This document shows, one piece after another, positions 20,745 to 55,829 of a stretch of 64,000 bases of DNA (the stretch's first letter is position 1; each line of letters begins with the position of its first letter). The notes under the pieces were generated by a model. That model saw only the letters and a program-made list of their open reading frames with translations, made no database searches and was not told the origin of the DNA. The DNA is from Candidatus Melainabacteria bacterium 17Bon1m (GTDB lineage Bacteria > Cyanobacteriota > Vampirovibrionia > Obscuribacterales > Obscuribacteraceae), in the NCBI GenBank assembly GCA_032128875.1, contig JAVLKG010000002.1, forward strand, positions 224,001-288,000, given 5' to 3'. The position numbers and the translations under genes are program-made.

Positions 20745-21422
20745 ATGCTAGAGATTTGCTCACTAGATCCAATAGACCTAAGACGATCGAATAATAGGCA
20801 CAAAGGAGCCACAGCCCTGTTTAGCAGCATCATAGCGAGAACACAGGTTGACGACAGCCTTGACGATTCAAGTCTCGTCAAGGCTTGTCTCAACGGTGAT
20901 AAGCGCGCCTACGAAGTGTTGCTCAGGCGTTATCAGAAGCTCGTTTATAACGTGCTTTATCAGATGGTGCACTCGCACGAGATGGCGGCAGATCTCACGC
21001 AAGAGACATTTTTGAAAGCTTATCGGGCGCTTGGCTCTTTCCGCACCGAAGGAAAGTTTAAGCCATGGTTGTTGCGCATCGCGACCAACACTTGTTTGAA
21101 CGCGATTCGAGACAACAAAGAGCACGATTCGCTGGATGACATTCTCGAAGAAAACCCGGGAGCCGAACCGGCTTACGACGAGAAGATTGAAGAGTTGGTT
21201 GAATGGAGGTTGACACATAAAAAATTGGAAGACGCGCTAAAACAGCTGCCGATGAGGCATCGCCAGGTTTTTATCTTGCGCTATCAGCACGATCTTCCAT
21301 ATGAGGAAATTGCAGAGGTGTCTGGCGAACCAGTGAGTACGATCAAGTCTTTGCTGTTTCGCATTCGAGAGAAGTTGCGCAAGATGCTCGCCGAGAGCGT
21401 CGAAAGCGGCATTCTCAGTTAG
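20745..21422 (+). CDS. ECF-type sigma-70 factor (start uncertain)
   Basis: DLTQETFLKAY, FKPWLLRIATN, region 4 YEEIAE...TIKSLLFRIR. Confidence 0.92.
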   Translation: MLEICSLDPIDLRRSNNRHKGATALFSSIIARTQVDDSLDDSSLVKACLNGDKRAYEVLLRRYQKLVYNVLYQMVHSHEMAADLTQETFLKAYRALGSFRTEGKFKPWLLRIATNTCLNAIRDNKEHDSLDDILEENPGAEPAYDEKIEELVEWRLTHKKLEDALKQLPMRHRQVFILRYQHDLPYEEIAEVSGEPVSTIKSLLFRIREKLRKMLAESVESGILS

Positions 21423-24316: not shown

Positions 24317-25257
24317 TACCCCCGAGCTGTTTTGCGCGCAATGCGTTTACGCAGTGTGAGTTTGCCGGCGGATTTTGAACCAATGCCTTGAACCACTGTG
24401 ATCTGTCTTTTCTTTTCTACGTCGCCTGCGACCGAGCGGCCAACAGCGGCGGCGATAGGTTTGATGGATTCGACCAGCTCGACCATGTCTTCGAGGGACA
24501 AGGCTTGGCGGGCATCAGAGACTGACTTTTCCGGTTCGGGGTGGCACTCGATGATCAGTCCATCGGCTCCGCAGGCGACAGCGGCACGTGCCAGGTCTGC
24601 GACCAGTTCGCGTTTTCCGGCTGCGTGGCTCGGGTCTACGATGACGGGCAAGTGTGTCAGTTGTTTGAGAGCGACGACTGCGCCGAGGTCGAGCACGTTT
24701 CTGGTGAATGTGTCGAAGCTGCGGATGCCGCGTTCGCAAAGTACGACATTGGGGTTGCCGTGAGCCATGATGTACTCGGCCGCCAGTAGCATTTCTTCGA
24801 TGGTTGCGGAGAGGCCTCTCTTCAGCAACACTGGCTTTTTGGCTTGGCCAAGGGCTTTGAGCAATTCAAAGTTTTGCATGTTGCGGCTGCCGACTTGCAG
24901 CATGTCTGCCTTTTCATCGCAGGCAGCCAGCTGTTCCACAGACATTACTTCTGTGACTGTGGGCAAGCCATGCTTCTGGCTCATGGATTGTAGGATGTCC
25001 AGCCCTTCTTCGCCGAGTCCTTGGAAGGCGTACGGCGACGAGCGAGGCTTGTGCACACCGCCGCGAATGGCGCTGACAGAGCCTTTCAGCTTTTGTGCGA
25101 CGATTTCCATTTGCTCGGCATTTTCTACTGTGCATGGTCCGCCGATGATGACGATTGGCTTGCCGCCGACTTTAAGAGAGTCACCGATGGCGACTTCGGA
25201 TGTCTGACAGCCTTCGGCTCTGGCGGCTAATTTGACTTGGTTGCTAATCTCGCTCAC
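24316..25257 (-). CDS. aroF: DAHP synthase, type I-beta
   Basis: [43 protein letters not shown] start at 25257 with GAGGA RBS. Confidence 0.93.
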
Positions 25258-25275
25258 TGTTTGAATCCTCGTGTG

Positions 25276-25311
25276 AAATAGTGAACCCGGGGGACGTATC
25301 CTCCCGGGCTC
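25276..25311 (-). terminator. Attenuator hairpin 2 (terminator-like, weak U-tract)
   Basis: GAGCCCGGG(A)GGA-TACG-TCCCCCGGGTTC followed by ACTATTT; the 5' arm can alternatively pair with CCCGGGCAGGT in leader 2. Confidence 0.65.
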
Positions 25312-25346
25312 TTCAGGTAACTGTTTGGTGCACTCAGCGTGCCAGC

Positions 25347-25475
25347 TTAAACCTGCCCGGGCGTTCCCCCTGCAAAAAAGAAGAAGTACCAGTAGTAAGA
25401 AGTTGATGGGCATTGAGTCTTCGCGGACTCAGCGCTTCGGAGGGTTAGGTTGTGGGTTATTTCGGTGTTCATCAT
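25347..25475 (-). CDS. Attenuator leader peptide 2, 42 aa: MMNTEITHNLTLRSAESAKTQCPSTSYYWYFFFFAGGTPGQV
   Basis: Hand translation; eight consecutive aromatic codons; TAA stop shortly before hairpin 2. Confidence 0.85.
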   Translation of the reverse strand: MMNTEITHNLTLRSAESAKTQCPSTSYYWYFFFFAGGTPGQV

Positions 25476-25486
25476 CTTTAGCTCTT

Positions 25487-25521
25487 AAACAAAAACCGCA
25501 GACCTTGTTGAGTCTGCGGTT
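25487..25521 (-). terminator. Attenuator terminator 1 (intrinsic)
   Basis: AACCGCAGAC-TCAACAAG-GTCTGCGG then TTTTTGTTT; the 5' arm overlaps antiterminator strand CTGGTGAACC. Confidence 0.88.
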
Positions 25522-25547
25522 CACCAGTTGGGACAAAGTAAGCTATC

Positions 25548-25598
25548 TCACCCCTGGCGAACCTCAAAGTACCAAAAATAAAAACCAAAATTGCTCAC
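25548..25598 (-). CDS. Attenuator leader peptide 1, 16 aa: MSNFGFYFWYFEVRQG
   Basis: GTG start 6 nt after AAGAGAG; 7 of 8 consecutive codons are aromatic; TGA stop. Confidence 0.85.
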   Translation of the reverse strand: MSNFGFYFWYFEVRQG

Positions 25599-25650
25599 GA
25601 CTTACTCTCTTAAATGCCAGGGCGTGCGCCCCGGGCGTTCCAATGCACCC

Positions 25651-25679
25651 ATAGTATGTGCATACCGACGGTGTGTCAA
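25651..25679 (-). promoter_or_regulatory. Sigma-70 promoter of the leader-aroF-tyrA transcript
   Basis: TTGACA (25679-25674), 17-nt spacer, TACTAT (25656-25651). Confidence 0.8.
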
Positions 25680-25923
25680 TCAAAAAGTGTCCTGACGGCC
25701 CACGAGTGTCTGCAAAAAAATACGATGAGGATGCCGCAAATGCTTGGTAGTACAGGTTTTTGGGCGTGAAGCTTTTAGGTGCCATTGTGTAAAGCGTCAA
25801 TCGAAACATATCTGCGCAAAACCAAAACCACGCAAGTTCCGCATGTTTGGCGCGTCTTCACATACTTATGCTGACCGAACGTTCAACAAATGAATGCGAT
25901 CGAGAGAACTTCTTTCATTCAAT

Positions 25924-25984
25924 AGATCTCTTTGTCCAAATCTCTTCGTCTAAATCTCTTCGTCTAAATCTCTTTGTGCAAATC
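25924..25984. repeat. Intergenic 14-bp tandem repeat, four copies plus a partial
   Basis: AGATCTCTTTGTCC AAATCTCTTCGTCT AAATCTCTTCGTCT AAATCTCTTTGTGC AAATC. Confidence 0.85.
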
Positions 25985-26253
25985 CTTATATAGAAGAAGT
26001 TGGATCAAATCCGGGAAATTGGCTCCCTCTTTTCCGTCAGGGTGGGAAGATTGTTATAGGCATCAGTTATAAGCATCAATTCTTCCGCGGTTTTCGGAAT
26101 TTTTGGTTTTGGGCGTTCAAAGTAGGCACTATTGAGATTTTGCTGCGTCAGCGTTGTGAAAGGAAACTCTGATATCCACTAAGAGCAGGAAGTTTGGCGG
26201 TTCGCCATGGGCGAGAGACGAGACTGCGTTGAGAGTCTGTAAGAGAGAAGAAC

Positions 26254-26724
26254 ATGAGTTCAATGAACATTCTGGTCGCCATTGATGATTCGACGTTTTC
26301 GGACGCCGCTATCTCTTCTGTAATAGAGCGGAGCTGGCCGGAGGGCTCGAAGTTTAAGCTGCTCAGCGTCGTGGAGCCGTTTCACCCTGAATACGCCGGC
26401 TGGCATACAAACTACATGCCTGTGGCTGTTGAAGCTCAAAAGGAGTTGGTCGAGGCGGCAAAAACGCTGGTCAACGAGAAGGTAAAGCAGCTGACGAGCA
26501 CTTTTGGACGGGAAAGCGTCTTGGCTGAGGTTCGAGAAGGATATGTCACGGATACGATTCTGGAGGCAGCCAAAGAATGGCCGGCAGACCTCATTGTCGT
26601 TGGGTCACACGGGCGCACAGGCATCACCCGCTTGCTTTTAGGTAGCGTCTCGGAGGCGGTTGTATCTCAGGCGCCTTGCTCGGTCGAAATAGTAAAAATG
26701 CCCAAAAAGCATGCTAAGGCTTAG
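26254..26724 (+). CDS. Universal stress protein (UspA family)
   Basis: ILVAIDDS...ADLIVVGSHGRTG...LLGSVSEAVV...PCSV. Confidence 0.93.
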   Translation: MSSMNILVAIDDSTFSDAAISSVIERSWPEGSKFKLLSVVEPFHPEYAGWHTNYMPVAVEAQKELVEAAKTLVNEKVKQLTSTFGRESVLAEVREGYVTDTILEAAKEWPADLIVVGSHGRTGITRLLLGSVSEAVVSQAPCSVEIVKMPKKHAKA

Positions 26725-53996: not shown

Positions 53997-55829
53997 TTAA
54001 CCACTTGAATCGGAACCAATCTGCTCGTAAGTTTTTTGACATTGTCCTTGTTCAGTGTCAACAACAACATCATCATCATCATCATCAATATCTTCTTCTT
54101 CTAAGTGTGGGAAGCTGACAGTGAAGGTTGTTCCACTGCCTTCTTCACTTTGGAAACTGATATTTCCTCCAAGGGCTTCAGTAATCTGTTTGCATAGATA
54201 GAGCCCAATACCGGTTCCGCCAGATGACTTTTGACCGAGTTCTCCCTGCCAGTACGGCGTAAAAAGACGTTCTTTGTCTGCTTCCGATATGCTTGGACCG
54301 AAGTTTTGAACTGCAATACTCACGCTCGTCTCAGACTTTGTCACCTGTATTGGAACTTTGCTGCCTGAGCGAGAGAACTTAATGGAATTCTCCAACAGAT
54401 TCGTGATCAGGTGCGAAAGTGCCGATTTATCGGCGATAACGATAATATCGTCAGAGTTTGTCACCAAGGCAATGCTGACATTGTTCAACTGGCAGCGATG
54501 CGCGAGTTTTTTTATTATTTCATCAATCAATTCCACTATCTGCACAGGCTGCATAGAAAGGATTTCTTTGCCTCCTCGGTACTTTGCTATCTCCAGCATG
54601 TTTTTCACCATACTCAGTGCATTTTCATTGCTGTCTTTCAAACGCAGCATTAGTTCGCTTGCGCCATTTGCGTTCGAGCCGAGTTTCTTCTGTACTGCCT
54701 GAATAATGTAGTTGGAAGCTATCAACGGACTTTTGAGATCATGTGCAATAGTCTGTTGTATTACTTCCTTGTGATGCGAGAGAATCGTTTTTTCAGAGAT
54801 GTCTTCGATCATAATGATCACGCTGCGTACTTTGGAATCTTCTACTATTGGCCAGGCTGCTAGATCCCAATAGACTTTTCGCCCGCAGTGTTTTCCGAAA
54901 CGAGTAAAATACAGACCTTTTAAGATTGCCGGTCTTCCCGATTTTACAGTCTCAATCAATTTTTCTTTAGGCATCTCGGGCAACAATTCCCATATTGATG
55001 TACCGGCTGGAAAGTCCACATCAACAAGGAAGTTTTCGAAAACGCCATTTACCTCTTGAATCCTGAACTCCGTATCGAGCTGAAGGATCCCGATTGGCGC
55101 GTGTTTCACAATCTCCCGCGAGACGCTCTGCTCTACCAGTAATGCTTTCTTTGAAGCGTAGATGTATTTTTGAAGTAAAAATGTGAGAGGCACAACGAAT
55201 AGAAAAATGAAACCTCCCAAGCACAGGAAGGTAATGGATGTTCTTTCTGTATTGTTTTTGTATTCCGTGAGCCTCTGTTTCAGCAGTTCCCTCTCCTCGA
55301 CATCAATGATAATGAGTCGGCCCCTCATCACCTCGAGAAGTTTTTGCGATTTGCTGAGATTGTCGGTTGCATTTACTTCGTTGCCGTTGTGTTTTTCTTT
55401 GACTGCAGCATCAAGTGTTTTTTGAAACTTTTGAGCGACTAGTTCAAGATAGGTAAGGTGCCATCTTCTCCAACCTTCGTCATCACCGATTCGCTTTATG
55501 TGCTGAATGCACTGCTCCAGGGTTGCCCTGTCGGATGTGTAGCGGCTTTCCGCTCCCACAAAACCTCTTGTTACATAGGTTTCTGCCTGTAACTGCATGT
55601 CGTTCATTGTTGACACGCTGGTTTGCAGATAGCCCAGAAGTTCTTGCGATTTGTCTATACTCTCGGCTGTTTCCATCGCTCGAGAAGCGAAAAAGTATGC
55701 CGACATGGCAGCGATTGTGACCAGAAAGAAAGTGACAACGACGGTCACTATCAGACTCTTCTCTGGCGCACGCAGCAGTCCGCCGAATCCCGGTAGTCCA
55801 GTGTTTGCATTGGTGGCGCGAATTAACAT
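53997..55829 (-). CDS. Sensor histidine kinase (CHASE3-like sensor, PAS, HisKA, HATPase)
   Basis: Two TM segments, IAHDLKSPL, NLLENSIKF, GTGIGL, GTTF. Confidence 0.92.
   Translation of the reverse strand: MLIRATNANTGLPGFGGLLRAPEKSLIVTVVVTFFLVTIAAMSAYFFASRAMETAESIDKSQELLGYLQTSVSTMNDMQLQAETYVTRGFVGAESRYTSDRATLEQCIQHIKRIGDDEGWRRWHLTYLELVAQKFQKTLDAAVKEKHNGNEVNATDNLSKSQKLLEVMRGRLIIIDVEERELLKQRLTEYKNNTERTSITFLCLGGFIFLFVVPLTFLLQKYIYASKKALLVEQSVSREIVKHAPIGILQLDTEFRIQEVNGVFENFLVDVDFPAGTSIWELLPEMPKEKLIETVKSGRPAILKGLYFTRFGKHCGRKVYWDLAAWPIVEDSKVRSVIIMIEDISEKTILSHHKEVIQQTIAHDLKSPLIASNYIIQAVQKKLGSNANGASELMLRLKDSNENALSMVKNMLEIAKYRGGKEILSMQPVQIVELIDEIIKKLAHRCQLNNVSIALVTNSDDIIVIADKSALSHLITNLLENSIKFSRSGSKVPIQVTKSETSVSIAVQNFGPSISEADKERLFTPYWQGELGQKSSGGTGIGLYLCKQITEALGGNISFQSEEGSGTTFTVSFPHLEEEDIDDDDDDVVVDTEQGQCQKTYEQIGSDSSG

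Follow-up and report, generated by a model that had tools for sequence, protein, structure and literature searches.

How does a non-photosynthetic relative of the cyanobacteria control the entry into aromatic amino-acid synthesis? The question is raised by a leader region in Candidatus Melainabacteria bacterium 17Bon1m, on the minus strand of a 64,000-nucleotide (nt) stretch of contig JAVLKG010000002.1 (positions 224,001 to 288,000; assembly GCA_032128875.1) that we refer to as the window. The leader stands before the first gene of this pathway, which encodes a 3-deoxy-D-arabino-heptulosonate 7-phosphate (DAHP) synthase and shares an operon with a chorismate mutase/prephenate dehydrogenase fusion gene. 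We consider it likely that the leader consists of two complete ribosome-mediated transcription attenuators in series, which sense the charging of aromatic tRNAs. The module is common to the family to which the window's genome belongs and to many photosynthetic cyanobacteria, and it is attached to one DAHP synthase paralogue.

Attenuation by leader peptides belongs to the textbook mechanisms of gene control and has been linked chiefly with Proteobacteria and Actinobacteria. In the form proposed here, each unit would contain a short translated open reading frame (ORF) with many codons for Phe, Tyr and Trp, the final codons of which serve as the 5' arm of an antiterminator; the partner of this arm would be the 5' arm of the terminator hairpin that follows. 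While aromatic aminoacyl-tRNAs are plentiful, a ribosome would reach the stop codon and cover the antiterminator arm, the terminator would form and transcription would stop. When one of these aminoacyl-tRNAs is scarce, the ribosome would stall upstream on the aromatic codons and leave the arm free to pair with the emerging 5' arm of the terminator, and RNA polymerase would read on. Because RNA polymerase would reach the operon only through two open gates, the outputs of the two units would multiply, and the series may provide lower leak and a steeper response. It is from the anatomy of the leader, its conservation, the covariation of its helices and the signs of its translation that we infer the stalling, the termination in vivo and the logic of the series.

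Table 1. Elements of the leader and the operon behind it, in window coordinates
Feature	Position	Strand	Score or source
Sigma-70-type promoter, TTGACA-17-TACTAT	25651..25679	-	scores 10/12
Small 5' stem-loop CCCGGGG...CCCTGG, directly 5' of the leader-1 ribosome-binding site	25617..25635	-	read from sequence
Leader ORF 1, GTG 25598 to TGA 25550-25548, 16 codons, MSNFGFYFWYFEVRQG	25548..25598	-	read from sequence
Antiterminator 1, 5' arm GGTTCGCCAG, within the final codons of leader 1	25554..25563	-	
Antiterminator 1, 3' arm CTGGTGAACC; its final 5 nt also form the terminator-1 base	25518..25527	-	
Terminator 1, 12-pair stem GAACCGCAGACT/GGTCTGCGGTTT (25522-25493), 6-nt loop, then TTTTTGTTT	25487..25522	-	terminator scan
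Leader ORF 2, ATG 25475 (second in-frame ATG 25472) to TAA 25349-25347	25347..25475	-	
U-rich run of aromatic codons, predicted to pair with GGGGGAAC...	25357..25392	-	minimum-free-energy fold of unit 2 without ribosome
Antiterminator 2, 5' arm CCCGGGCAGGT, final codons of leader 2	25351..25361	-	
Antiterminator 2, 3' arm: ACCTG (25318-25314), 5-nt bulge AAGAG, CCCGGG (25308-25303)	25303..25318	-	
Hairpin 2, GAGCCCGGGAGGA-TACG-TCCCCCGGGTTC	25283..25311	-	-20.8 to -22.3 kcal/mol, depending on the segment folded
GAGGA ribosome-binding site and GTG 25257, start of the DAHP synthase gene	25255..25270	-	
DAHP synthase, type I family, 313 aa	24316..25257	-	Pfam DAHP_synth_1 5.2e-74
Chorismate mutase/prephenate dehydrogenase fusion, 432 aa	23018..24316	-	Pfam CM_2 8e-18, PDH_N 1e-26, PDH_C 3e-18

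Both leaders are dominated by aromatic codons towards their ends. Leader 1 has seven among its 16 residues (F4, F6, Y7, F8, W9, Y10 and F11). The 42 codons of leader 2 end in ...STSYYWYFFFFAGGTPGQV, with the run SYYWYFFFF, in which codons 27-34 (YYWYFFFF) are aromatic without exception (8/8); overall, nine of its final 17 residues are aromatic. The start of leader 1 is preceded by AAGAGAG and that of leader 2 by AAGAG. In both units, the 5' arm of the antiterminator sits in the last four to five codons of the leader. The two arms of antiterminator 1 are complementary with the inclusion of one G-U pair, and the CCCGGG in the 3' arm of antiterminator 2 doubles as the 5' arm of hairpin 2. A promoter scan of 25000-26300 returned the listed promoter as the sole promoter-like site, and the two genes of the operon overlap, the stop of the DAHP synthase with the start of the chorismate mutase/prephenate dehydrogenase fusion. 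An earlier note, made from the DNA letters alone, had described this promoter, the two leaders, the complementarity of both pairs of arms and the ribosome-binding site of the DAHP synthase gene (aroF); all of these were confirmed on the minus strand, and the gene identities that it had given for the operon are borne out by the Pfam matches. The overlap that it had claimed between antiterminator 1 and terminator 1 exists as well, but it amounts to only 5 nt (GAACC).

The arrangement exceeds what chance would produce. The fold of the 394-nt leader has a z-score of -3.7, equalled by none of 100 shuffled sequences. On both strands of the whole 7.55-Mb genome there are 70 short ORFs (9-51 codons) with at least six aromatic residues per nine-residue window, and just two same-strand pairs of them lie within 300 nt of each other, one being leader 1 and leader 2. 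The other pair, at about 54498-54863 on the plus strand of the window (MREFFYYFINQFHY... and MCNSLLYYFLVM...), lacks any terminator-like site; it has probably arisen by chance, the DNA there being rich in A and T.

In a DNA search of 40 relatives, the whole leader was found in 12 of 12 genomes of the same genus, at 74-95% identity. In the genus alignment, the promoter hexamers and every helix arm are retained along with the two leaders, while the region upstream of the promoter has diverged. TTGACA is invariant in all 13 genus sequences, as are GAGGA and GTGAGCGA; AAGAG precedes leader 2 in 12 of them and is replaced by AAGAC in L013, and at the site of the small 5' stem-loop the remaining genus sequences have a CCGGG-ACG-CCCGG hairpin. 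Within the genus, leader 2 changes in length mostly by multiples of three: there are two net 3-nt changes, and a 1-nt deletion in L005 and L006 shifts the stop by four codons.

Beyond the genus, BLAST detected unit 1 in 18 of the 24 family genomes, and the tandem layout is kept across most genera: in six other genera, two aromatic-rich short ORFs lie 5' of the DAHP synthase gene. In G013, two copies of the unit-1 type (L017, 1473-1757) replace unit 1 and unit 2. A recent duplication was rejected as their origin, the copies being only 64% alike and no closer than copies from other genera. Five of the genomes missed by BLAST, with G023 left out, were retested with R1, a covariance model of unit 1, which recovered the unit in four of them, each time directly 5' of the orthologous DAHP synthase gene; BLAST had thus undercounted unit 1 in the family. 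The fifth is without both unit 1 and the orthologous synthase. Of the four recovered loci, two are clear tandems; in a third, the second ORF is doubtful, and the fourth seemingly has unit 1 only. In two loci of the family, L166 (G014; leaders MSNKSYYFYFFAPRFI and MTTANTYFYFFGSANRGSPE) and L167 (G017; leaders MKSVRYFYFFSPEVHLP and MRIQNTTNFYFFYYAASRGSPE), neither leader contains a Trp codon, and the amino acids sensed seem to differ between genera.

The element extends far beyond this family. A search with the terminator-1 pattern against one genome per GTDB species yielded at least 119 stretches, mostly with cyanobacterial or Melainabacteria/Obscuribacterales titles; among them are Nostoc, Calothrix, Leptolyngbyaceae, Stenomitos, a Gloeobacterales metagenome-assembled genome (MAG) and MAGs titled 'Candidatus Melainabacteria' and 'Candidatus Obscuribacterales'. 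About 72 of the 80 matches with long flanks have an aromatic leader upstream, and the other eight or so are unrelated terminators in other phyla. Two Melainabacteria/Obscuribacterales MAGs bear the leader type of the window's genus. In the cyanobacteria, a DAHP synthase gene of the same type follows 40-350 nt downstream, and in the spacer there is another leader (typical form M..SWFYGFYFWPRxSSG), which has a hairpin of its own, CCCGGAAC..GTTCCGGG, with a U-run. The distinct sequences gathered in this way number 118 for unit 1 and 113 for unit 2. Leader 2 with full flanks is present at 113 of 117 unit-1 loci; two more have a leader 2 where the stored DNA ends early, L017 has its second unit-1 copy instead, and L067 apparently has no leader 2.

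In a phylum sample of 151 genomes, drawn evenly and including the window's own, 22 candidates were scored per genome, so that the counts are lower bounds: R1 matched at least 21 genomes and occurred in at least eight of 29 other families, while 50 small genomes of family f6 gave no match among the candidates scored. Of the 20 matches outside the own genome, 18 are tandem. G076 (L160) has unit 1 only, and in G088 (L158) unit 1 precedes a disrupted, truncated DAHP synthase gene; G127 (L161) has unit 2 only. Since each unit thus occurs alone in some genomes (unit 1 in G076, unit 2 in G127), each is a complete module.

A protein search found DAHP synthase homologues in 135 of the 151 genomes. They fall into two classes: one of about 50% identity, present in nearly all cyanobacteria, and one of 63-71% identity, present in 20 of the 150 other genomes. 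Nineteen of these 20 are R1-positive, and the twentieth is G127 with its lone unit 2; the leaders therefore go with a single DAHP synthase paralogue, the 63-71% class, of which the window's enzyme is a member. Besides this enzyme, the own genome encodes a further paralogue (G000:C8:7719-8498, L162), which is 66% identical to that of the window and groups with family-level sequences in a quick tree. The 650 nt upstream of it contain no aromatic-rich short ORF, and R1 at E-values up to 1 detected no unit-1 copy in this genome beyond that of the window. A quick tree of the regulated synthase separates the 24 cyanobacterial sequences, without exception, from the window's family by a single branch, which has a Shimodaira-Hasegawa-like approximate likelihood-ratio test (SH-aLRT) support of 92; the tree is unrooted, and its shape would fit old vertical descent.

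If the arms listed in Table 1 form alternative helices, their partners should change together, and this is what the alignments reveal. In antiterminator 1 (A1 columns 63-76 with 115-128), 87% of cells are paired across 118 sequences, with compensatory exchanges at 72:119 (CG 94, UA 12, AU 3), 73:118 (GC 62, AU 23, UA 14) and 74:117 (GC 97, AU 7). None of 500 shuffles reached its covariation score, and sliding the partner by one to three columns as a control lowered the paired fraction to 29-48%, against 83% for the whole structure tested. Terminator 1 could not be tested for covariation on A1, because the search pattern itself had fixed it; among the R1-found matches, however, it occurs in compensatory variants, namely GGACCGCAG/CTGCGGTCT and CCGTGG/CCACGG. 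In unit 2, 83.5% of the cells of antiterminator 2 (A2 columns 66-76 with 127-137; n=113 sequences) are paired, with exchanges at 69:134 (UA 69, CG 18) and 70:133 (UA 83, CG 19), and terminator 2 (A2 columns 127-136 with 150-161) is paired in 90.9% of cells, again with compensatory pairs. Where the arm shared by the two helices changes from AA to GG, both partners, that of the antiterminator and that of the terminator, change from UU to CC. This three-way covariation is what two mutually exclusive helices require.

The two ORFs likewise behave as coding sequences. An in-frame start opens leader 1 in 117 of 118 sequences, all 118 close it with TGA, and its median length is 18 codons. The stop of leader 2 occupies a single position across 113 relatives, where three different codons serve (TAA 66, TGA 28, TAG 19), and its core TTT and TAT codons vary only between T and C at the third base. 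The upstream parts of the peptides vary freely, and the frame is kept. Phe, Tyr and Trp are all present in 114 of 118 sequences of leader 1 and in 109 of 113 of leader 2; over the last 16 codons, the aromatic residues average 6.1 in the leader-1 frame, compared with 3.5 and 2.0 in the other two.

These signs make it extremely unlikely, in our judgement, that the RNA structures act without translation of the ORFs, for instance as a ligand- or protein-binding switch in which the aromatic runs are a by-product of U-rich sequence. The nucleotides of unit 1 are unusually conserved, with a near-invariant core GGTTCA...GAACCGCAG...CTGCGGTT, which such a switch would account for; it would leave unexplained three stop codons at a single position, a start and stop of leader 1 kept in 117 of 118 sequences, aromatic enrichment in one frame, third-position changes confined to T and C in the core codons, and peptides that vary freely upstream in a frame that is kept. 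A match to an Rfam family is likewise missing.

Attenuation also predicts that the position of the ribosome decides which helix forms. We placed a 27-nt ribosome footprint (from -15 to +11 relative to the first base of the A site) on the leaders codon by codon. In unit 1 of the window, the antiterminator has a probability of 0.76-0.93 with the A site at codons 1-8 and of 0 from codon 11 to the stop, while the four lowest pairs of the terminator go from 0.18-0.25 to about 0.85 between the same positions; nine of ten diverse unit-1 sequences behave in a similar way. In unit 2 of the window, the probability of the terminator falls to 0.33-0.39 only with the A site at codons 28-32 (Y W Y F F) and is 0.98 elsewhere and without a ribosome. 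With this assumed footprint, the productive codons for stalling would be F4, F6, Y7 and F8 in unit 1 and Y28, W29, Y30, F31 and F32 in unit 2. Without translation, the predicted pairing in both units of the window favours the terminator; in unit 2, the pairing of the aromatic-codon run (25357..25392) is predicted to keep antiterminator 2 back when the ribosome is absent.

The reading of both units as ribosome-mediated attenuators, already proposed in the earlier note, is thus supported by the conservation of the ORFs, the in-frame aromatic enrichment and the compensatory changes. Two of the checks that the note had suggested turned out in its favour: on folding with and without footprint constraints, the choice between terminator and antiterminator flips with the position of the ribosome, and on alignment of the regions upstream of aroF in relatives, the short ORFs, the aromatic codon runs and the covarying stems proved to be kept.

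Several points nevertheless weigh against two working attenuators. The footprint used in folding is itself an assumption. Antiterminator 1 competes for only the lowest five of the 12 terminator pairs and so leaves a seven-pair hairpin 2 nt from the U-run, and leader 1 begins with GTG in the window's genus. In the cyanobacteria, the terminator of unit 2 stays at a probability of about 1.0 at equilibrium whatever the ribosome position, in five of seven modelled loci. Since equilibrium never flips unit 2 there, the model for these loci must be kinetic: on transcripts cut before the 3' arm of the terminator, its 5' arm is held by the tail of the leader unless a ribosome occupies the last five or six codons, in 11 of 12 loci, and such holding would be a kinetic form of the classical model. 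The RNA-Seq libraries that contain this stretch (four runs of one sample, which may be the one that this DNA came from) have contigs of 4.7-9.6 kb across the region, and their longest records reach 137-182 kb; records of that length mean that DNA is present, and the contigs cannot show RNA ends or levels. A contig break at 25502-25515, inside the terminator-1 hairpin, is most simply an assembly break.

Another point concerns hairpin 2, which the earlier note had counted into a complete second unit. The hairpin is strong, covaries and overlaps antiterminator 2; in the window it is followed by ACTATTTCAC and not by a U-run, and the terminator scan of the window region did not call it. The same tail follows hairpin 2 in nine other sequences of the genus, so that the second gate may be weak. 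Five of five positions are T in 94 of the 113 relatives and only two of five in 11, ten of which belong to the window's genus; L013, the most divergent congener, has TTTCTTTTT instead. The second gate in this genus may accordingly be leaky or dependent on a factor.

It would be a further step to suppose that only unit 1 is effective in this genus and that unit 2 is decaying or has been repurposed, be it for pausing, for RNA stability or as a weak terminator that depends on a factor, so that the operon, its hairpin-2 U-run being lost, is in effect gated once. The skewed distribution of U-runs and the silence of the terminator scan are in line with this, and so are the relatives that have a single unit (G076, G127 and probably G016). 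Against it, 13 genus genomes with diverged flanks preserve leader 2 and its aromatic run nearly unchanged, together with the ACCTG arm and the two CCCGGG arms. Moreover, unit 2 of the window still switches with ribosome position when folded, and L013 does have TTTCTTTTT after the hairpin. We regard the loss of the second gate as unlikely.

Very unlikely, by comparison, is a role of the hairpins chiefly in the translation or decay of the DAHP synthase mRNA and not in transcription termination. Hairpin 2 ends about 12 nt 5' of GAGGA and has GGAGGA in its loop, and its U-tail in the genus is weak, all of which would suit such a role. The ribosome-binding site is, however, unpaired in all predicted folds; terminator 1 and, in relatives, terminator 2 have canonical U-runs; and the cyanobacterial gene begins 40-250 nt past terminator 2.

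Given two attenuators in series, one may ask why there are two. It is conceivable, though unlikely, that the double gate is not redundant but ancient in its architecture and under selection, that it predates the split between photosynthetic cyanobacteria and Vampirovibrionia/Melainabacteria, and that its units do different work. Unit 1 would be opened mainly by stalls at Phe and Tyr, because its single Trp codon lies, in all lineages modelled, just at the margin of the zone where stalls are productive (the probability of the terminator base at this W is 0.37-0.66). In such a division of labour, unit 2 would additionally read Trp.

Parts of unit 1 are conserved to an unusual degree. The core of the terminator-1 stem, CCGCAG/CTGCGG, is nearly invariant from Melainabacteria to Nostocales, and so is the arm GGTTCA/TGAACC (window 25493-25522; A1 columns 121-130 and 143-150 for the two together). 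The overlap of a coding frame with two helices accounts for the arm and not for the stem core, the invariance of which far exceeds the needs of a terminator stem. A short RNA ended at terminator 1, whose core CCGCAG/CUGCGG hardly varies within the phylum, might have a function in trans, as passages of PMC12612679 say of the trp leader RNA of Sinorhizobium.

Three other loci of this genome may be mentioned here. The promoter is separated by about 570 nt from an upstream universal stress protein gene on the opposite strand (26254-26724, plus strand; Pfam Usp 4e-29), and downstream of the operon lies a gene of the sigma-70 family with regions 2 and 4 (20745-21422, plus strand). Outside the window, at G000:C12:178588-178665 (L163:189-266), a 25-codon ORF, MPLNTRVIVETAARNHGHHHHHHHS, includes seven His codons in a row; behind it come a hairpin (GACCCGCT..GGCGGGTTTTTTT) and then hisG (Pfam HisG 7e-38). 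The locus has a weak match to the Rfam family Trp_leader (23 bits, E 0.07) and resembles a leader-peptide attenuator of the classical his type.

How does the aromatic leader compare with known systems? Tandem riboswitches and tandem T-boxes also place two sensors and two terminators in series and thereby respond more sharply or more tightly; they sense a ligand or uncharged tRNA through RNA, whereas the sensor here would be the translating ribosome. In the trpL-trpE, pheL-pheA and pheM-pheST systems of Escherichia coli, as outlined in PMC11802643, the position of the ribosome selects an antiterminator or an intrinsic terminator. The likeness lies in the short translated ORF with codons for the end product and in the decision by ribosome position, and also in the predicted pairing that, in both units of the window, favours the terminator in untranslated RNA. 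Unlike these systems, the leader described here has two full units in series, each of which mixes Phe, Tyr and Trp codons; it belongs to a different phylum, targets DAHP synthase, the shared entry step of the pathway, and has no sequence or Rfam relationship to them.

Aromatic leaders in front of DAHP synthase genes have precedents. In Corynebacterium glutamicum, the leader peptide encoded by aroR, with Phe-Tyr-Phe, lies 5' of the aroF operon, and stalling raises transcription in response to limitation of Phe, not of Tyr (Neshat et al., 2014, as summarised in PMC11802643). It resembles the present case in its position and differs in being a single unit of an actinobacterium. The uORFC-13-1 motif 5' of aroF in Acholeplasma, a candidate ORF with Phe codons next to an intrinsic terminator that was proposed from comparative analysis (Brewer et al., 2021, PMC8632094), is a single unit, from one genus of Mollicutes and environmental sequences; no Rfam match links it to the DNA studied here.

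For the tandem arrangement, the closest counterpart is the mgtCBR leader of Salmonella. Its two short ORFs, mgtM and mgtP, each govern their own choice of stem-loop and thereby transcription; they read ATP and proline-charged tRNA, act independently and additively, and are termed 'a singular example' in the abstract (Lee and Groisman, 2012, PMC3641672). The earlier note had known of no described tandem leader-peptide attenuator, and this report of tandem mgtCBR attenuators corrects it; the device is therefore not of a new kind. Both leaders have two short ORFs, each with its own alternative stem-loops. In contrast to mgtCBR, the two units here are alike in the three kinds of codon that they carry, and either one comes with a terminator hairpin of its own; a multiplicative combination would therefore be expected.

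With regard to the lineage, the note's remark that attenuation is undescribed agrees with the open PubMed Central and bioRxiv literature (subscription journals and supplements excluded), which yielded no description of this element; a passage of a 2016 paper sees no reliable evidence of attenuation in cyanobacteria (PMC4833913). Rfam 15 at the gathering score finds only a tRNA in the window and nothing at the leader, and at E-values up to 1 it gives no match in the leader loci L001, L022, L028, L038 and L059. As far as searched, the leader would be the first case of a two-unit aromatic leader-peptide attenuator for this phylum.

If this reading is true, many cyanobacteria and their non-photosynthetic relatives would control a dedicated DAHP synthase isozyme, and with it the entry into the shikimate pathway, by switches that sense the ribosome, and transcription and translation would be coupled in these lineages. 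The leader would offer a natural case of two attenuators in series for like signals, suited to the study of leak and steepness, and its units would constitute two RNA families new to Rfam. For metabolic engineers working with cyanobacteria, it would be a target for releasing the control of the aromatic pathway.

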